64,000 nucleotides of DNA from Ilumatobacteraceae bacterium (GTDB lineage Bacteria > Actinomycetota > Acidimicrobiia > Acidimicrobiales > Ilumatobacteraceae). A program made the translations under genes and the position numbers. The notes under the pieces were generated by a model. The model worked only from the letters and a program-made list of their open reading frames with translations. It was not told where the DNA came from and searched no databases. How positions within the stretch are numbered: position 1 is the stretch's first letter; the number at the start of each line of letters is the position of its first letter. Below, piece after piece: positions 10,840 to 56,800 of the stretch. The stretch lies in assembly GCA_043773365.1 (NCBI GenBank), contig JAYVFI010000002.1, positions 89,815-153,814 of the forward strand, in the 5' to 3' direction.

Positions 10840-11043
10840 CTATGCGGCGGTTGAGCGCTCGGGTCGACGGGCAGGGAGTTGGTGGACGGTGGCCTTGGCG
10901 GCTTGCCGGTCGGCGAGGAGTTGGCGGATCTCTGCGATGTGTTGCAGGCCGCGCCGACGAGTCTCCGCATCCAGCCGGAACTGCACGGGAACATTCGGCG
11001 ACGGCAGCAGCGTGAGTTGCTGGGGTGCGTCGTGGTTGGTCAT
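10840..11043 (-). CDS. Small hypothetical protein (67 aa)
   Basis: Fills the gap between LLM and STAS genes with no overlap; helical basic sequence QLTLL..FRLDAETRRRGL; CATGAT box 6 nt upstream. Confidence 0.6.
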   Translation of the reverse strand: MTNHDAPQQLTLLPSPNVPVQFRLDAETRRRGLQHIAEIRQLLADRQAAKATVHQLPARRPERSTAA

Positions 11044-11050
11044 GCCGTCA

Positions 11051-11446
11051 TCATGCGCACGGGGGTGTTGCAGAGTTGTCGGCGGATCCCGTCCGCCGCC
11101 GCTCCGGGTGTTTGGAAGACTCGAGGCGGCGAGTGAAGATGCCGAGTGACCGATCGGTCGGTATGGCGCGGAGCGCGGGGTGGAGCGGGTCGATCCCGAC
11201 GATCCGGACGCCGACGCGGCGCCGTTCCAGTTCGTCGATCATCGCCCCCAGCAGCCGTAACGTCTCCGAATCTGCGAGTATCGCATTGATCAGGTCGAGA
11301 TGGATTGCGTCGCCGTCGTCGTTCTCGTCGAGCACGTCCAACAATGCGTCGATCGTCGTGGCGTCGACGAGGCCGCGAACGGCGATCAGCCGAACTCCTC
11401 CGCCCGGGTCGTCGATCCGTGAAATCGCCACGGTCGGGCGTGTCAC
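11051..11446 (-). CDS. STAS (anti-anti-sigma-like) domain protein
   Basis: IAVRGLVD....ALL.......IHLDL....LADSETL.LL......RR.V.V.IVG pattern. Start uncertain: GTG 11446 after AGGT, or 11548. Confidence 0.65.
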   Translation of the reverse strand: MTRPTVAISRIDDPGGGVRLIAVRGLVDATTIDALLDVLDENDDGDAIHLDLINAILADSETLRLLGAMIDELERRRVGVRIVGIDPLHPALRAIPTDRSLGIFTRRLESSKHPERRRTGSADNSATPPCA

Positions 11447-17579: not shown

Positions 17580-20420
17580 TTACGTGAAATAGCCGAACAC
17601 GTCGGCGAGGAATCCGCCGACCGGGCTGGGCAGATTCGCCGAACCGTCCTCCATACGAAATCGTGCCCGCCCGAGGTCGACTGCAGTGATTGCTGCACCT
17701 GCGCGCACCTCGCCCGGCGTCACCCAGTTCAATGCGGACGTCGCAGGCTCGACCTGATCGGCCGCCCACCCGCGAACGAAACCTGGCCGCCTGACGGAGA
17801 TCGCGGCAAGATTCCACACCACTCCCGAAGCGTCGTCGGGAACGTTCACGCCGGGGGCATCCGACCCGTCGACCACGACGATCTGCCCGTCGACAAGGTC
17901 GCCTCCGGTGATGCGCGAATCGAACGCGCGGTTCGGACGCACCGGCACGTACCTTCCGGTGTTCGCTGACGGTGCAGCGCTCGACGTGATGTAGCCGATC
18001 GCATCGACGACGACGTCCGAGCTGCCGTTCTCGACGAAGAAGCCGGTGACCGCGATCCCGTCTTCGCCCACTGGCACGATCGCGGTATTGGCGACGGTTC
18101 CGCCAGGGGTCAGGTTGATCGTCGACGTCGTTCCGATCGACGAGGTCAGATCCGAAGGGAAAGCCTGCACCCAGCCGTGATTCGAAGCGCCCGTGCCAGT
18201 CACGGTGACCACTATCGCCGTGACCTGCTGGGGGTCGACACCAGTCGGCCAGCGAACCGAGCGAAGGGCGGTCGATTGCAGCGGACCGATCGGCGCGTCG
18301 ACACGTGTGTCCAGGACACGCTCGGCGCCGGGAAGTTCGACGAATCGTCCACCGGTCACCGGGCCACTCGTGCTCTCGAACCAGCCGAGCAGGTCGACGA
18401 CGAGGTTCCCGGACGCAATCGAGTAGAGCGAAATCGTCCCACCATCACCGAGCGGAACGATCGCGAAGTTTGCTCGCGTCTGACCGATCGAGTCGGTGTT
18501 GAGATTCGAGAACGATCCGAGCGAAGCGCGGTTGGTCGGAATCGCTTGAACGAAACTCGGACGGTCAGCGTCCACCGTCGTGATGTTGACCGCCACGGCG
18601 GTCACGCCGGTCGGCGGAACACCGGCGACGCCGACAACCGGAAGGTCGCGGATCTCGCCGGCCGAAAGCGGACCGATCAGATTCGTTGGCCCGATCGCCT
18701 CGGTTGGGCGGGTGTCGAGGATCCGGGTCGGTGACGCGACCGAAACGAATCGAGACGGCGTCTGGTCGATCGCGGTCACCGGCGGCGCCGGAAGCCGAAA
18801 CTCCCCGTGGCCGAACACGTTGTCGGGGCCTGTCGCGCCTCGATCGATGGTGAGGTGGCGGATCAGATTTCCGAGCGTGTCCGCGCCGGTCGCCAGCCCT
18901 CCGTCCAACAGCAATGCCGCCGCGCCGGCCATGACGGCGGATGCGGCACTGGTGCCTGCGAACGAACCACCGATCGAACTGGAGAACGACCCTGGTGCGG
19001 CGACGTCGGGAGCGAGCCGACCGTCGTTGGTGGGTCCCTGAGAACTGTAGGAGGCGATCAGGCCGGAACTCGCGGGCGAGATCGCACCGACGGCGATCAC
19101 ACCCGGGTCGGTCGAGTCAACGACCGAGGTCGATGCCGAGTACGCCGACTGCGTGTGGGCCGTCATGCCTGCGTCGTAGTCCAGAATCTCGATCAGGTCG
19201 CCGTCGGCTGTGCCCGCTCGAAGCACGATCTCGAGGTAGAGCGCATTCCCGGCTTTCGGGCACCGCCTATCGGCGATGTGCTCGATCGGCGGAGCGCCGG
19301 CGCGCTGGCTTTCGGCCGACCGACCTACGATCGTGCCGTTGGCCGGCTGGCCGACCGGTGATTCCCAAAGATTGACGTCGTAGTCCGTCCGAAGTGACCG
19401 CGGAAGATCCCAGTCGTTGGCCCATCGAACTCCCGCCAGGGACACACAGCCGCTGAAACGAAGGAACGTGTCGTTGCCCGAATCACCGAAGGCGATCCGG
19501 TTGTTGGCGATCCGAGCCGGGTGTCGATAGTAATGATTGGCGCCGTTGTTGCCTGCGGAGTTGACCCACAAGATCCCCTTCGAGACGGCATAGGCGACGA
19601 CGTCGTCGAGTGGGCTGCGCCCGTCACCGGGCCCGTCGAATCGGCTCCCGAGTGAACGGTTGATGACGGTCACACCGTTCGCAGCGAACCAGTCGACGAG
19701 GGCGCGATAGTCGGGGGTCGTGAGTGCTTGACCGAGGAAAATCTCGACCCCTGGCGCCATGTCTCGGATTGCCTCGACCACCGCCACGCCATGGTCCTCG
19801 CTCCCCGAGTCGATCCCGTCGAAGAACTCGTCGGTGCAGTCGGATCCCTGGGTCAGGCACTTTGCGGTGAGCCCCTTGACCGGCTTCGGGCCGTGTTCGG
19901 CCTCGTTCCAAAACTTCGTCACGTCGAAGTAATCGATCACGCCGACCTTGATGCCCGACCCGTCGATACCGGCAGCGTGCCACGCTGTGGCGTTGGTGAT
20001 CGCCACCTCATCGCCGTTGATCGGCCCGAACTGGACCGCCTGGTCGCCCGACCCCAGCGACTGCGGGATCACGTCGACGGCGAACGGGGTGCGAACGCGA
20101 CCGTGAATGCGGGCGGTGAGCCGGGCCTGTTCGGCAACCGGGACTCGCACGAGGACCGCGCTCGGGGAATCACTGACGACGTACCCCCCGAGGTCGAGCG
20201 CCAGATCAACGGCAGCGGCGAGGCCGGTCGGGTCGTCATCGACGATCTCGACCGTCGTGAGTTCAGGCGACGCGGCGATCGTCGGGTGAACACCCAGCCC
20301 CGACGCGAGCACCACGCCGAGCAGGGCGGCGATCGAACGTCGTTGCGACGACAGTACAACACCTCGAGTCCGAGATCTCCGGGCAGGGAAGTTCGACGAT
20401 TGGTTCTTGGAGGCGTACAT
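17580..20420 (-). CDS. Secreted subtilase (S8) with three C-terminal LDTR-type putative cell-surface modules
   Basis: Signal-like IAALLGVVLASGLG; triad D (GVIDY, 19932-4), H (DHGVAV, 19791-3), S (GTSAAS, 18948-50); oxyanion SAGN; YSSQGPT.DGR..PDV.AP; repeats SRFV..P.RILDTR, GRFV....RVLDTR, GRYV..P.RAFDSR. Exact start uncertain. Confidence 0.92.
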   Translation of the reverse strand: MYASKNQSSNFPARRSRTRGVVLSSQRRSIAALLGVVLASGLGVHPTIAASPELTTVEIVDDDPTGLAAAVDLALDLGGYVVSDSPSAVLVRVPVAEQARLTARIHGRVRTPFAVDVIPQSLGSGDQAVQFGPINGDEVAITNATAWHAAGIDGSGIKVGVIDYFDVTKFWNEAEHGPKPVKGLTAKCLTQGSDCTDEFFDGIDSGSEDHGVAVVEAIRDMAPGVEIFLGQALTTPDYRALVDWFAANGVTVINRSLGSRFDGPGDGRSPLDDVVAYAVSKGILWVNSAGNNGANHYYRHPARIANNRIAFGDSGNDTFLRFSGCVSLAGVRWANDWDLPRSLRTDYDVNLWESPVGQPANGTIVGRSAESQRAGAPPIEHIADRRCPKAGNALYLEIVLRAGTADGDLIEILDYDAGMTAHTQSAYSASTSVVDSTDPGVIAVGAISPASSGLIASYSSQGPTNDGRLAPDVAAPGSFSSSIGGSFAGTSAASAVMAGAAALLLDGGLATGADTLGNLIRHLTIDRGATGPDNVFGHGEFRLPAPPVTAIDQTPSRFVSVASPTRILDTRPTEAIGPTNLIGPLSAGEIRDLPVVGVAGVPPTGVTAVAVNITTVDADRPSFVQAIPTNRASLGSFSNLNTDSIGQTRANFAIVPLGDGGTISLYSIASGNLVVDLLGWFESTSGPVTGGRFVELPGAERVLDTRVDAPIGPLQSTALRSVRWPTGVDPQQVTAIVVTVTGTGASNHGWVQAFPSDLTSSIGTTSTINLTPGGTVANTAIVPVGEDGIAVTGFFVENGSSDVVVDAIGYITSSAAPSANTGRYVPVRPNRAFDSRITGGDLVDGQIVVVDGSDAPGVNVPDDASGVVWNLAAISVRRPGFVRGWAADQVEPATSALNWVTPGEVRAGAAITAVDLGRARFRMEDGSANLPSPVGGFLADVFGYFT

Positions 20421-20499
20421 CTCGGTGACAGTTCCCGCACGGATTGTACTGTCGTCGATGCTGGTCGGCCGGTCGCCTCAACCAGAAACAGAGAGAACT

Positions 20500-20566
20500 C
20501 GTCAACCCCCCGGACGTATGTCACTCTCTGCAATTTTCTTTGTCAGTTTACTTGACGAAGTGTCAA
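20500..20566. promoter_or_regulatory. Divergent promoter region: four (T/C)GTCA boxes at ~20-bp period and a TTGAC-N5-GTCAA palindrome
   Basis: GTCA at 20501, 20520, 20542 and 20562; TTGACgaagtGTCAA at 20552-20566; AT-rich context. Confidence 0.45.
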
Positions 20567-20599
20567 CGCTGGGTGCAAGGTACGTCCCGGGGACAAACA

Positions 20600-20640
20600 C
20601 GAATCCGGCGGCGACAGTTCCGGCGAACTGGCCAGATTCG
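20600..20640 (+). promoter_or_regulatory. Long hairpin in the putative leader of the giant gene
   Basis: CGAATC/GATTCG, GGC/GCC and CAGTTC/GAACTG nested pairs; flanked on both sides by GGGACA. Confidence 0.4.
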
Positions 20641-20713
20641 GCTGAGGGACAGAAGATTGGCGATGAACGGGTTGACTGCACCGATTGTGAATCGAGGGGT
20701 GGAGCCGTAGCTC

Positions 20714-20809
20714 ATGCGAACGACGGCGCACCGCGGGACGAGTTTGGCGCTTGTTGTCGCGCTCGTCGCCCCCTTGGTGGTTGCCGGCGAGTCCAACCAG
20801 GTATCTGCG
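20714..20809 (+). other. Sec-type signal peptide of the giant protein
   Basis: MRTTAHRG (basic), SLALVVALVAPLVVA (hydrophobic), VSA cleavage-like site. Confidence 0.7.
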
Positions 20810-23800
20810 TCGAGCGGTGAAAACATATTTGTCTCCGGGCCGGCCTCGGCCGTGCCGATCACCGTGTCGATTGTGGAGGCTGATATCACGGCTGGTCTTC
20901 GTTCCGCGGCGGAGGCTTACTGGCCTGGCGCCTCGCTCGGCTCGGTGACGATCACGATCGGCGACCTCGACGGAGACCGAGTGGCGACCGCTGTCGGGAA
21001 CACCGTTACGGTCGACGGAACCGCAGCCGGACGCGGTTGGCATCTCGATCAGACCGTCGACCCTGTCGCCGGTCGAGTCGATCTCCTGACCGTGCTGGCC
21101 CACGAGTTCGGACACGTGCTCGGGTTCGCCGACATCAACGACACGGTGCTTCCGCACACGCTGATGACCGAGTCGATTCTGCCGGGCGAACGCCGCCTGT
21201 CGGCGCCCGTCGTCTGGCCGGTCAGTTTTTCCGGTGCGGCATCGTTGACCCGCACCGGCACGACCGTGACGTTCGACGCGGGCACGCCGAGATCGCTCGA
21301 CGCGAGTGTGCTCGCAGGTGTGTCAGTCTCCGGAAGCGCCGTCGCCGACACGTTGACGATCGGTGTCGGGCTCGATGTTCCGGTCGCGTTCGTCGGCGGT
21401 GAAGCAACTGATTCGGTGATCGGTCCGACGGGTGGAATCGCGTTCGAAGTCGGACGGGCCACTCCCGGCGCAGCGGGGTCGGTGTCGGTCGCGACCGTCG
21501 AGACGATCACCGCTGGTTCGGGTTCCGACTCGCTCGTGCTGCCAACCGGTGGCACGACCGTTCGCTTCGGGGGCGCCAACTCCGGCAGCGTGGTCGATTC
21601 GTTCGGGGCGCCGCTCACCGCGTTCACGGGGGTCGAGGCAGTTGACGGAAACGTCAACGGTGGCCCGAACACATACATCGCCGACACACCGGCCACGATC
21701 GTCGGGTTGACGATGGGCGCCGCCGATCGGATCGTCGTCGAGGTCGAGCGGGGAGCCCAAATCTCGGCAGCCGGGGTGACGCCTGTCGTGTACGCCCCGA
21801 GCATCGACGTGTTGACGGTCACCGGCACCGCCACCATCGCAGGCGGGTTGGAGATCCGATCGACTTCGGGTTCGCTCGACAGTTCGACGACACCGATCGG
21901 CTATCTGGACCTCACCGCTTCCGGCGGCTTCACCGCGATCGTCGGGCTCGACCTCGGCGGCGGCGCCTATGCGGCGCTTTCGAGGTCGACCACGCAACGA
22001 CTGCTCGTCCGCAAATCGCTGCCTGACGGCGTTGCCGTCAACTTCGCCGACGCACCAGCAGCTGACCGGTTCTTCGCCTTCCTGGCGGGTGAGCTTCCGG
22101 CGCCGGCGGGCACACAGTCGGCTGACGTCGTGATCGGCGGTCAACATCTCTCGGGCACCGCCACGATTTCGGCCGGAGCGGTGGCAGGCGCATTCACGAT
22201 CGGTCTCACCGGCGCCCGGTTCCGGTTCGGCGACGCAACCGATCCGTTGGCGACTCTCGACGACACGTCGGTCACCCTGACTCTGGACGCGGCGCACCTC
22301 ACAGGAACGGTCGTCGGAACCGTCACCGCGGCGGTCGCGGGTGTTGAAATGTCCGGCACCTTCACGGTGGCGATCGACACGAACGCGCCGATTGTCGCCG
22401 CTGGCTCTGGTGCCACGCTGACCGTCGGGGGTCAGGTGATCGATGGCGATTTTGGGATCGAGCGAATTGATGTCGGAGGGCTTCCAAAGCTCCGCATCAG
22501 TGGACTCGTCGGCGCCACGTTGTCATTCGGAGGCGAAGGAGGCTCGGCGCTGGCGACGGCGACGTTGAAGGCCGACCCGAATCCGGTGGCGCCCAACCCT
22601 TCCGATGGCCTGCCACGGATCGTGATCGGCAGTTCCGGCGTGCAGGCGTCGATGGTTGCAACTATTGCCGTTGCGTCGTCAGGTGTTTCGGTGGGTGGCG
22701 AGGTTCGAGTCACGATCGACACCGTCGCCGACCCTGACGTCATCAAGGCGTCGGTCTCGAGCGCAACGCTCACGATCGACGGGCAGGTGTTCACCGGATC
22801 GGTCGTCGTCGACGAGGTCACGAGCCCGCTCGGCAACCGCTCTGTGGTCGTGCAGGTCGCCAACCTCGCAACCTCGCTCGTGGGCGGCACGACCGAACTT
22901 GCGGCGATCACCGGCGGCGCCGGCACGCTCGTGCTCTCGTCAGGTGGCCTGAGCGGTCGAATCAGCGCCACCGTCGATCTTGCGGTCGACGGCCTCACCG
23001 TCGAGAGCGGCACCGCGTTCCTCGAACTCGACACGACAGGAGCGACCGCAGAAACTCGAATCGAGATCGACGACGCAACCGCCACGGTGACCACGACCGC
23101 AGGTTCGATCGGCCTCGGCGGCGACCTCGTGTTCGATCACAAAGCGACGCGGACGGTCCTCGCCATCGACGATCTGACCGCATCGGTCGTATCCGGCCCT
23201 GCGTCAGGCTCGGGCTTGTTCGGCGCCGAAGGCGCCTTCGTCGTCACGAACGCCGGAGTCGCCGGAGTCGTGTCGGGTCGTTCGAGCGTCGCCTCTGGCG
23301 CGGTCGATGTCGGCGCCCGACTCGGGTTGCGTGTGAACACAACTGGCAGCGCCGTGAACGAGACCTTTACCGTCAACGGGCGGAGCTTCGGCATCGTCTT
23401 CGCGACCGGCGCATCGGTCGTCGAGATCTTCGGGTCGATCGACACGTTCGCGATCGGTTCGTTTGCCACGATTCACGGCTCGATTTCGTTTGCGTCGACG
23501 TCTGGAGGCTCGGTTTCGGTCGGTCAGGACACGACGATCTTCGTCGGTGAGGGACCCGCGCGCCTCGGCGACGGTTCCGACAATCCGGCGGCGCGTGGCG
23601 CCCGCTTCGTGACGAGTGCCATCTCGACCTTGACCAGGGTCGGGTCTGGCAGTTCTGCGAAGTACGCATTGCTTGTCAATGGAGCCCTTACGCTGCTCGG
23701 AATCCCCGGCGTGTCAGGCACCACGACTGCCGCCGGCGCGACGCTGCGGATCAACACGACCGGCTCGGTCCAGACCGGGTTTGCGACAGGCGTCGAGGTG

Positions 23801-50800: not shown

Positions 50801-53800
50801 GCTCGCACACAGCAGTTCGCGTCAGTGACGAAAGCCGAGTCGTTCTTCATCGAACTGTCAGGCGGCCTGATCCTCAGCGCCGGTCAGGACATCAAGCTGC
50901 TCGAACTCGAAGCCAAGGTTCAGGTCGAACTCGACTTCGCCCGTTCGGTCTTCTCGCTCGACTTCAACGGTCGACTGACCGTGATCGGGCTCGGCACGAT
51001 CGGCTCCACGGCGGGCCGCTTCGTGCTCGACACCGGTGATGGGTTCAAGTTCTGGGGCGTGATGACGGTCGAAACCGACTTCAGCAAGCTCGAGCAGTAC
51101 GGCATGTTCCTGTTCGGCAAGGGAACGCTCACGGTCAACACCACGACCGAGGCACGCTGCGAGACGATCACCCTGCCTGGCCTGGCCACTGCGGCCACCA
51201 GCGCCGCCCCGTGTGTCGCCGAGCCGACGAGCTTCGGCGCAGGCACCGGCGCCACCCGCACGTTCCTGCTGGCGCCGCAGAGCTTCTCGGTCGAGATCCT
51301 TGGCCAGTTGCGGATCAGAGTGCCCGGAACCACGACCGATCTGGTGCGCATGCAGGGTGGCTTCGTGTTGCGGATCGATCCGACCCGGTTCGAAGTGTTC
51401 GCGACCGCCGAGATCTCGTTCGGCATCGGTGACGCCCAGCTGACATATGCCCAGGCCACCGGCCTGCTGATCATCAAGACCGGCGTCGACGGCCTCACGC
51501 CAGGCATCGCAGGGATGCTCAAGACGGGTCGGTCCGCCGGCCTCGGAATCCCCGGTGTCGGCAGCCTGTTCAGCGCCAGCGGCAGCGTCTCGGTGATGTT
51601 CAACACCACATTCGAAGACCAAATCTTCCTGATCCCCGAGTCGTTCTACCCGTTGCTCCACCCGGGCGAACCGACGTCGATCAGCATCTTCAAGTCGGCC
51701 CCAGGGCTCGACGGCCAACGCGACCCTGCCGGCAACCCCAACGGCGAGGTCTATGTCGTCGCCACGATCCAGGCCGAATTGCAGATCGGCCCGATCACGC
51801 TCGTCGGCTTCATCCAGATCGAGGTAGCGGCAAGCGGCGAGGGCGGACGATTCGTCCTGACGGGCGCTGTGTCGACCGAGATCGACTTCATCGGGGCGCT
51901 CTCCGGCACGATCAATCTGAACATCTACATCGGTCCGAAGTCCGGCGTCGTCGGCCGCGTGCAGCTGGCGTTGCAAGCCGGGCTCCCGAGCCCGTTCGGC
52001 GTCGACCTGTTCCGGCTCGAAGGCGACTTCCTGCTGGAGATCAACGCTGTGATCGGCGGCAGTGGAGTCGAAACCGTCGACACGTTCCTGATCGGCAGCG
52101 ACGGCAAGTTCCTGCGCAACCCCGACGGCTCGTTGCAGGTCGGATCCGTTGTGATCAATCCGGGCGTCAAGCTGCGGCTGTCGGGCAAGGCAACCCTGCT
52201 CGGCGCGCTCGAGCTTGAAGGCAAGTTCACGCTCGACATTGCGCCGGGGGTGATCGAAGTCACGGTTGACGCCCGGTTGAAACTGAATCCGTTCGGTTCA
52301 TTGCAGGCGACCGGTGGGTTCCGCATCGACGGTCAGGGCGTGTTGTTGAAGGCCACGCTGGCGATGAGCGCCGCATTCGGCGGCGACATCGGCCTGCGGT
52401 TCTCCGCCAGTGCGTTCGTCTCGTTCAACTCGTCGGACTCGGTGCGCACGCTCGGTGGTCTCGGCAATGTCGACCCAGGCCTCAAGATCCGGATCGACGG
52501 CAGCATCGAGTTCCTCGGGTTTGCGAGCGCCAGCGGCTTCGCCGAGATCCTGATCAACAGCACGATCACCCGGATCGAATTCGGTGTCACGTTCTCGATC
52601 GGAGGCGTGCTCAACTTCGAAGCGTCGGGCGGCGCAGAGGTCTCCTACGGCTCAGACCCTGGCCTCGCCTTGCGGCTCCACGTCAGCGTCACCGCAGACG
52701 CCACGATCTTCCGCATCGAGGCCAGCGGCGACCTCGAACTGAACACCACCAACACGACGCGGCTCGGGATCACACCGCACTCGTTCCTACTCCGGTTGAG
52801 CGGTGAAGTGTCGATCCTCGAAGTGCTCAACTTCGACGCCAGCTTCCAGGTGGTCGTCCGCAACGGCGGCTGGCGATTCGATTTCGACGCGACCATCGAC
52901 TTCTTCGGGATTCTCACGATCGACGGGTTCGGCTTCCTCGACTCGCGCGGGAACTTCGACATCACGCTGCAGGGCCGCTTCGTGATCGGCACCGAGAGTT
53001 TCGGTCTCTCGGGCGACGCCACGTTCAGGGTGTGGAACATCACCACGCTCGATGCGTCAGGGAACGATTTCTTCAGCTTCGGGCTGTCGATCGACGCCAA
53101 CCTGCGGGCCAAGCTGTTCGGGATCACGCTCGCCGGCGTCGGGTTCAACGTCACGTTCGAGGCCAACAGCGGCACCAGCACCGATGGCCGCGTGAAGATC
53201 GAACTGAGTGTGACGGTCAGGATCACGATCCTGTTCATCACGATCAGCAAGACCGCCCGCTTCACGATCGGCTACCTGCAGCTGCCACCGCCGGTGTTCC
53301 TCGCCGGTGACGCCGACGGCCCGTCTGTCGGCACGAACTGGACCGACGCAGGCGGGATCCTCTACCTCAACGTCGGCGCCGGTCGATATCAGTTCCGCAA
53401 CATCGGCGACGATTGTGAGAGTGCGCCGGGCGTGCCCGCCTACACCGGTGACTGCCGCGACGAGACCTACATCATCCGTCAGATCGGATTCAACGACGCC
53501 GGGTCGCCGCTCACCCAGGTGACGGCGTACGGTCGCACGAACTCGTTCGCCAACGTCACCGAGATCCGTGCGATCGGAGGCGCCGGCGGCGGCGGGTTCG
53601 GCGCCGGCAACGATCAGCTCTACATCGACTCCACGGTCACGGTGCCGGTCAAGGTCCAGATGGGCAACGACGACGACTTCGTGTCATACGGCGGGGCCAA
53701 CGCAGCGAGCACGATCGAGGGCGGCGACGGCGCCGACAACCTCGAATGGACCGGCAGCCTCGCCGTTGGCACACCGAAGGCCAGCCTGCTGGCGTTGATC

Positions 53801-56800
53801 GGCGACGCCGGTGACGACTACATCGCCCTGCTCGGCGGCGCCGGCCGGGCCTACGGTGGCGCCGGCGCCGACTACATCGTCGGCAGTGCGTTCGGCGACC
53901 TGCTCGATGGTGGGAGCGGTGAGGACGAGATCGTCGGTGGTGGTGGTCCCGACACGATCACCGGCGGTGTCGACCGCGACAAGATCGTGCTCACCCACGC
54001 CAGCCGCGGCACCACGGTCGATGGTGGGAGCGAGGTCGACTATCTGGTGGTGTCGGCATCGTCGAGCGGCGACACCGTAAACCTCGGCACGCAGACCGAT
54101 GGAAGCGGACTCGACATCACGTTCGTCGACGCCGACCCGTCGCTGGCCGGGAGCATCCTGGCCGAACTGGTCGAGAACGTGACGTTCTTCGCCGGGTCCG
54201 GCAGTGACACCATCAGGGTCAACGAGCTCCGGGGAAGCGGTGTCAGCAGTCTCGAAGTCGGTCTCGGCACACTGGAGACGATTACCGGATTCGTCGATGT
54301 CACCGAGACGATCACCAACCCGGCGCCGGGCACCCCGGCCACGATCACCCGCTCCGTGCCCGTCATCACCACGATCGACGACAACGCCCCCGATCGTCTG
54401 ACGGTGTTCGGCTCCGACCTTGGCGACATCTTCACATTGACGACGGAGGAGCCCGACACCACGAGCGGCTTCTACCGCAAGATCCGCACGACCCGCCGGG
54501 TCGCCGGCCAACCGTCGTACTCGTACGACCTGATCACCAGCGGTTCGCGACGAATCGAGGGTGACGTCTTCAGGATCGAGAGCGGTCTCGGCAACGACAC
54601 GATCGACGCCGGAGCGCTCGGCGCCAAGCAGACCGTCAGTGTCGCTGGGACGCCCGTGGTCGTCGCGGGCGGCGACCTCGTCGCCTTGCAGTTCGTGACA
54701 GGCGCAGGCAACGACACGTTGGTCGGCTCGCCGTGGAACGACCTGCTCGACGGCGGCGCCGGAAATGACCGCTACACCGGCGGCGCCGGTCTCGACACGT
54801 TCTTCGACGCATCGCCGGCGACCGACATCGACATCCTCGTCGAGGTCTTCGACCGTGACATGGGCCTGTTCGACGACACATTCGTCGTCGGCGCCGTGCT
54901 CGCCGACGACGGCACCTCGTTCGGTCTGCGGCCACCGGTCACACAGACGTTCCTGGAGGAGGAGTTCCGGACCGACGACCCGAACCTGAGGTTCCCGAGC
55001 CGTGGTGACCGATGGACCTCGACGACGATCGTCGAAGACCTCAAGCACATCTTCGAAGAAGCCGACCTGCGCGGTGGGAGTGGCCGCAACGTGATGGTCG
55101 TCGGTGACGCCAACGGTCAGATCCAGGTCGGAAGCGGTATCCGCCAGGTGTCGGCGTGGACCGGAAAGGTCAGTCTCGACAACCTCGACAACACCGAAAA
55201 TGCCTTCCCCGAGTACTACGTGCTGAACGTCGTCGGCGGCAACCGGTCGCGAATCAGCATTCGAGACACGGCGGGCAACGACATGCTGCTCGTGTTCGGC
55301 ACCGATGGCGCCGACAAGCTCGCCCTCAACGCCCAGGGCACCGGCGCCGCACGCACCGGCTTCATCACGATCGGCGCCCGCGAGGCGGACGGCGCCGACT
55401 TCCGTGATTCGGTGCTGTTCCGCGGCGTCGAGTTGGTGCAGATCGACCTGCTCGGAGGGCCCGACTCGGTGCTGTCCGACGACACCGCCGTGATGACGAT
55501 CATCAACCTCGGCGGGGGAGACGACGAGATCGTGATCGGCACCGTGCCGCTCGTGCCCGACCCCGGTAATCGCACGCTCGAATTCCCCGACGGTGTGCCC
55601 GTGGCCGACACCGCCAACATGACCAACGGCAACTCCGCAGCCCTGTTCGTGCTCGGCGAGGGCAACAACGACCGCTTCGAGGTCAACCACAACCGCGGCA
55701 AGCTGTTCCTGCACGGTGGCGCAGGCAACGACCGGTTCCTCCTCAAGACGTTCCTCGTGCTGCGTGAGAACCCCGACGACAACGAAGAGATCACGAACCT
55801 CGCCTCGCTGTTCGGCGGCACGGGGACGAACCGCTACGACTACCTCCAGAACGCACCCGTGTTCATCAACGGTGGGCCGGGGCTCGACACGATCGTCGTC
55901 GTCGGCACCCCGATCGGCGACACGTTCATCATCACCGACGTCACGATCGTCGGGGCCGGCCGGATCACGACGTTCGTGGGCATCGAAGCGATCGAGGTCG
56001 ACGGCGCAGGCGGTCCCGACACGATCTGGGTGCTGTCGACCGGCGCAGGGGTCTCGACCACAGTGATCGGTGGTTCCGGTGACGACACGATTCACCTCGG
56101 CGGCACCCCGCCGCCGCTGATCCTCGACCCGCCGTCGTTCGTCTACACGCCTCCGCCGGTGATCGTCGAACTCCCGCCGGTGATCGTCTTCGAGGAGGTC
56201 ACCCTGGCCAGCGGCTCGGTGACGACCAGCTTCGACCGAAGCGTGTTCGACATCATCGCCTCGTTCTTCGGTGTCGGGACGAACGAGACGCAGCGCAGCC
56301 AGCTGCGCGCCCTCGACATCGCGGTTCGGGCGGCGAAGGGCTGGCTCGACGCCGCACGGGCGAGTGTGCCCTACTTCCAGGCGCCCAAGATCATGATCAA
56401 TGCCGGTGCTGGCGGGTTGATTCCGCTGCTCAACGCCGACGGAAGTCTGCGTTCGGCGGCGTCGTACTCGCCAACCGAGTTCGGCAACATTCTCGCCAAC
56501 ATCACCGTCGAGAACCGGGTGACGTTCAGCTTCTTCGGGATTTCGTTCGGGAGCACGACGGTCGCCCGAGTTGACAACCTGCTCGTCACCTACGAGGCCG
56601 GGCGCACGGTCGCCGTGACCAAGCTGATCCAGCCGCAGCCCGTCGTCGTCGACCCGCCGCCGTTCGTGTACGTCGCCCAGTCGGTGTACGACCTGACGGC
56701 GATCCGTGGCCGACTCACGATCCTCGGAGGGGAGTCCGTCGAGGGCGCAGGCGACCTGGTCGTCGTCCATAACCAGGACGGCAGCTCGGCAGCCAGTCGC

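Follow-up and report, generated by a model that had tools for sequence, protein, structure and literature searches.

A stripped-down matrixin-like metzincin module with a predicted Asp third zinc ligand near the N-terminus of a giant actinobacterial repeat protein

The metzincins (clan MA(M)) are recognised by an extended zinc-binding consensus, HExxHxxGxx(H/D), by a Met-turn and by a fold that combines a twisted β-sheet, a backing helix A and an active-site helix B. The smallest characterised metzincin is snapalysin (M7), a free enzyme of about 132 residues with a C-terminal helix; to our knowledge, such a helix is present in all characterised metzincins. Matrixins (M10A; PF00413), including the MMPs and karilysin, are about 160–170 residues long, with His as the third zinc ligand, an S-loop with structural Zn/Ca, a C-terminal helix C and a propeptide bearing the PRCGxPD cysteine switch. 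In serralysins (M10B) the third ligand is also His, a Tyr past the Met-turn acts as a further zinc ligand, an RTX β-roll lies right behind the protease and secretion proceeds by the type I route without a signal peptide. Minimal zincin scaffolds of about 110 residues are represented by the minigluzincins and mini-zincins (M94, Acel_2062; M95, proabylysin, projannalysin and selecase). The M94 and M95 proteins are free, presumably cytoplasmic and devoid of a Met-turn, and the minimal zincins solved so far have no detectable activity (PMC3890501).

The window analysed here is a stretch of DNA of 64,000 nucleotides; its source organism is a freshwater-sediment Acidimicrobiia. Most of it is taken up by one giant ORF, which begins at ATG 20714 on the forward strand, with an in-frame TAG two codons upstream and a GGAG 9 nt upstream, and continues without a stop up to the last position of the window, so that 14,429 aa are encoded inside it. 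The full gene call on the source contig is 18,213 aa. The main features are as follows.

20714–64000, + strand: giant ORF, first 14,429 codons, running past the window end
20714–20809, + strand: Sec-type signal peptide, aa 1–32 (read by eye; N-terminus kept in homologues P0001 and P0002)
20819–21202, + strand: predicted mini-matrixin (metzincin) catalytic module, aa 36–163 (AF2, Foldseek and profile matches)
21101–21133, + strand: zinc-binding consensus HEFGHVLGFAD, aa 130–140 (motif and column conservation over 382 copies)
21164–21166, + strand: Met-turn methionine M151, 11 residues past D140 (profile column matching the Met-turn Met of MMP-11 and karilysin)
21176–21196, + strand: post-Met segment I155-L-P-G158-E-R160-R161 (family consensus LxPGxRR)
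22100–45958, + strand: about 66 tandem all-β repeats of about 120 aa (fibre, or 'spacer'), aa 463–8415 (iterated HMM)
53720–54799, + strand: RTX-type Ca-binding nonapeptide repeats, aa ~11,003–11,362 (GGxGxD runs and Pfam)
17580–20420, − strand: secreted S8 subtilase, 946 aa, divergently transcribed (adjoins orthologous genes in two other contigs)

Logan contigs from two independent runs cover positions 20300–21700 with zero differences at about 24× depth, and their identity rules out an assembly artefact in the protease-head region. A scan of metagenome contigs found no relative of the N-terminal 330 aa, and an exact 60-mer from the window end was absent from JGI metagenome contigs. By inspection, the signal peptide consists of R2, H6 and R7, then LALVVALVAPLVVAG, then VSASS; cleavage would fall between VSA and SS or, earlier, between VAG and ES. 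The three closest N-terminal homologues (45–63% identity) have the same MRxAAHR... signal peptide start.

A first-pass annotation had placed HEFGHVLGFAD, ten further residues and a Met just past the signal peptide, and the motif is found exactly there, at aa 130–140, about 100 residues past the signal peptide, with the 10-residue spacer INDTVLPHTL leading to M151. The copy thus carries the extended consensus of clan MA(M), including its turn residue G137, and M151 supplies the Met-turn. A six-frame translation of the whole 64 kb contains the pattern HExxHxxGxx[HD] a single time; a chance origin is ruled out, as the protein composition predicts about 1.2e-4 occurrences in the ORF. H130, H134 and D140 are the putative zinc ligands and E131 the putative general base, and the alignment and fold match suggest that the three ligands converge on one metal. 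In the family profile, D140 occupies the column of the third His of MMP-11 and karilysin, in agreement with the Asp third ligand proposed earlier. H148 as an alternative third ligand is ruled out, since the corresponding loop contains no His in P0001 and P0003.

The module is small, as had been supposed, with about 125 residues. Its AF2 model has a pLDDT of 87.9 and a pTM of 0.84, with a pLDDT of 93–96 over the helix, the ligand loop and the Met-turn. The predicted elements are strand β1 (aa 37–40), helix A (aa 55–67) followed by the invariant W70, three strands (aa 79–83, 89–94 and 97–101), active-site helix B (aa 124–135), the Met-turn and a short tail; the module ends about 12 residues past the Met. 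The twisted β-sheet, backing helix A and active-site helix B of the metzincin fold are all present in the model. A Foldseek search, suggested along with structure prediction in the first-pass annotation, returned MMP-12, -1, -9, -2 and -8 as the best PDB matches, and all of the best 30 were MMP catalytic domains (probability 0.87–1.0, TM about 0.5). The family profile also aligns with MMP-11 (E 1e-7), karilysin and fragilysin, with W70 in the column of their helix-A Trp. Judged from alignment and model together, the module is a real, stripped-down, matrixin-like metzincin domain with a predicted Asp third ligand.

The model has no S-loop, no helix past the Met-turn and one strand fewer than matrixins; since the lower subdomain is missing, including the C-terminal helix, the cleft is possibly incomplete. 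The LxPGxRR segment could replace this subdomain, as an S1′ wall or through a salt bridge. No Cys occurs in the giant protein before aa 6884, and the window copy therefore has no cysteine switch; a propeptide is also absent. The N-terminal NIFV strand is unlikely to be an inhibitory pro-segment, since it takes the place of the canonical strand β1 in the predicted topology.

The family to which the module belongs was defined by a dedicated profile (A3). An exhaustive search with this profile yielded 11,679 cluster representatives with the module at E ≤ 1e-3 and 2,056 at the stricter E ≤ 1e-30. They are spread over many phyla, and many are giant adhesin-like proteins of Planctomycetota, Actinomycetota, Proteobacteria and even archaea; in databases they are labelled 'hypothetical' or show only a partial matrixin match. 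The window copy is a good but not unique find, one member of a very large family. Literature searches found no specific published account of the module and no biochemical data for any family member, and no family entry was found. Pfam Peptidase_M10 (PF00413) is matched by 46 of 50 relatives; whole-protein scores of relatives were 25–46 bits.

Loss of the motif among homologues had been named in the first-pass annotation as grounds for abandoning the claim; its columns are kept across 382 copies (H 358, E 362, H 351, G 358). HE[FL]GH[VL]LGFAD is also kept in both of the closest homologues that extend to the motif (two of three). The third-ligand residue is His in 261 copies, Asp in 84 (about a quarter) and Glu in 7, and the ligand-to-Met spacing tracks the ligand, being 11–12 for Asp and 6 for His. 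The Met-turn Met is found in 347 of 356 ungapped copies; further on, L/I is present in 345 copies, G158 in at least 90% and R160 in 308. The family positions, in window numbering, are W70, D101, G106, W109, D123, H130, E131, G133, H134, G137, 140 (H/D), M151, 155 (L), G158 and R160, and the window copy agrees with the family at all of these but 155, where Ile replaces the usual Leu.

Such a reduced fold, with or without its metal site, might have been kept as a structural module at the fibre end, mediating zinc-dependent binding or dimerisation. The missing lower subdomain of the model is compatible with this, as is the undetected activity of the M94 and M95 zincins (PMC3890501). In other proteins, degenerate copies without the His or Glu persist in tandem pairs (P0128, P0133, P0135 and P0137), and the fold can therefore persist without catalysis. 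However, the catalytic Glu, which metal binding does not need, is retained in 362 of the 364 ungapped copies, and the window copy shows no such degeneration; a purely structural role is considered improbable.

The reading favoured here, which we regard as fairly probable from the motif, the alignment and the model, is that aa ~36–163 form a minimal matrixin-type metzincin, an active zinc endopeptidase tethered at the fibre tip and cutting the proteins it encounters. H130, H134 and D140 would then serve as ligands of the catalytic Zn and E131 as the residue that activates the water; M151 would provide the Met-turn under the metal, and the LxPGxRR segment would substitute for the missing lower subdomain. 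With the canonical first strand starting 4–5 residues past the predicted signal-peptide cut and no propeptide, the module would be exported first by the Sec route and would be left uninhibited where a β-ribbon of about 66 repeats has its free N-terminus. Its substrates would be proteins met by the fibre tip, including neighbouring surface proteins, and it would act as a tethered protease, not as a free secreted enzyme.

The ribbon itself is built from repeats that matched nothing in Pfam (aa 201–8400) and had no significant PDB fold match by Foldseek; the AF2 model of two repeats (pLDDT 94.5) shows long antiparallel hairpins. A free-tip topology, with the protease head distal to a C-terminal anchor, is plausible. 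Across the family, the module is typically located close to an end of a large repeat protein, and the domains that accompany it have binding functions (LamG, Calx-beta, cadherin, NHL propellers and dockerin), which fits the logic of a targeting domain combined with a catalytic one.

The same architectures bear on the main rival, in which the mini-metzincin would cleave the very chain that carries it, or identical chains beside it, at a defined site and so release or mature the fibre, possibly together with an anchor-near C-terminal copy and with no foreign substrates. Of the copies in the 150 best representatives, most are terminal, lying no more than 200 residues from an end of the protein (66 C-terminal and 10 N-terminal, with 27 internal), and P0126, P0127, P0138, P0141 and P0142 have one near each end. 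C-terminal copies stand directly ahead of anchor-like tails, a hydrophobic helix and an Arg-rich stretch that end several homologues of the C-terminal cassette described below. A cleft so reduced points to a limited set of substrates, and GxRR past the Met-turn is nearly invariant. Against self-processing, the sequence outside the domain showed no conserved linker or cleavage motif, the giant protein has nothing N-terminal of the domain to trim and no processed forms are known. It is rated as rather unlikely, and the tethered protease remains the preferred reading.

The RTX repeats that the first-pass annotation had placed about 11,000 residues away were located: GGxGxD runs occur at aa 11,003–11,066, with further runs up to aa ~14,006, and Pfam HemolysinCabind matches aa 11,329–11,362, so that about 10,900–11,200 residues separate the motif from the RTX region. 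An Acidimicrobiia orthologue with 61% identity, whose locus ends ahead of the stop and is frameshifted, offers a comparison. There, RTX repeats are followed by LamG-like and Calx-beta domains and then by a second, His-type mini-metzincin near the C-terminus. This C-terminal cassette (RTX, LamG-like, Calx-beta and mini-metzincin) is widespread by itself; a homologue search with the orthologue's cassette returned many relatives, the window protein not being among them. By analogy, the giant protein probably has a second His-type copy near its C-terminus, past the RTX, LamG-like and Calx-beta regions and close to a probable anchor, and the RTX repeats probably go with that copy.

These data weigh on the earlier picture of a single protease and its RTX partner held apart by a spacer, that is, a serralysin- or snapalysin-type enzyme whose β-roll was displaced by some 11,000 residues through insertion of the repeat array. 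A metzincin and RTX repeats do share one polypeptide, and HExxHxxGxxD with a Met about 10 residues on also occurs in snapalysin (PMC3890501). Yet the orthologue's RTX region is part of the conserved cassette with the second mini-metzincin, the Tyr past the Met-turn is missing, the signal peptide is of the Sec type and not of a type I layout, and neither Pfam M7 nor the serralysin C-terminal domain is matched. The split is probably wrong, and a displaced partner of this kind is very improbable.

A bolder proposal, which we hold to be doubtful, is that the module is the smallest self-sufficient metzincin and that the Asp-type head and the His-type, anchor-near copy cut or dock as a pair, controlling fibre release, length or head-to-tail linkage. 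If true, such pairing would represent a new logic of bacterial surface-protein processing, acting on micrometre-scale fibres in thousands of proteins and many phyla. If the module is active, no metzincin scaffold more reduced than this one would be known; it would show to what extent the lower subdomain can be dispensed with and how a single family exchanges Asp and His as third ligand in step with loop length. Once a function is defined, such as that of a tip protease, a sheddase or a maturation device, a large part of microbial surface biology could be annotated; for this one freshwater-sediment Acidimicrobiia organism, it would reveal the far-end cargo of an 18,213-residue protein.

Among known families, snapalysin resembles the module in the HExxHxxGxxD motif and its spacing (D140 to M151, 11 positions), in very small size and in secretion by an actinobacterium. 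Unlike snapalysin, the module forms part of an 18,213-aa protein; the window copy has no match to PF02031 at E ≤ 10, only 1 of 50 relatives matches it at E ≤ 1e-3 and snapalysin is not among the top 50 Foldseek matches, so the earlier snapalysin framing does not hold. The serralysin framing fares no better. The combination of metzincin and RTX repeats in one polypeptide is shared, but the giant protein has none of the serralysin layout features: it has an N-terminal Sec signal and an Asp third ligand, the Tyr of SxMSY (two past the Met) is absent (T-L-M151-T-E-S), and Peptidase_M10_C is not matched, only the generic HemolysinCabind about 10,900 residues away.

The M94 and M95 proteins are likewise minimal scaffolds, M94 also has HExxHxxGxxD, and selecase and jannalysin are weak Foldseek matches (ranks 31–39); the module differs in being extracellular, in possessing a Met-turn and in its clearly closer relation to MMPs. 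NCBIfam NF038122 ('metallo_LGF') shares the HExGHxLGF core and is the best NCBIfam match for 39 of 50 family members, but its scores of 23.4–25.1 bits lie below the cut-off of 80 and the alignment spans only about 35 residues; membership is ruled out and the likeness is at motif level only. The nearest relatives in sequence and fold are the matrixins, even though the window copy scores 18.3–20.1 bits against PF00413, below the gathering threshold of 24, with only profile positions ~102–127 aligned. Common to both are helix A with its conserved Trp, the G-x-L-A-x-A edge-strand region, the D-L-L-x-V-x-x-HExGHxLGL helix and the Met-turn. The module, by contrast, is shorter, lacks the S-loop, helix C and cysteine-switch propeptide, has a predicted Asp in place of the third His in the window copy and is, unlike the matrixin enzymes, an accessory unit inside huge repeat proteins.

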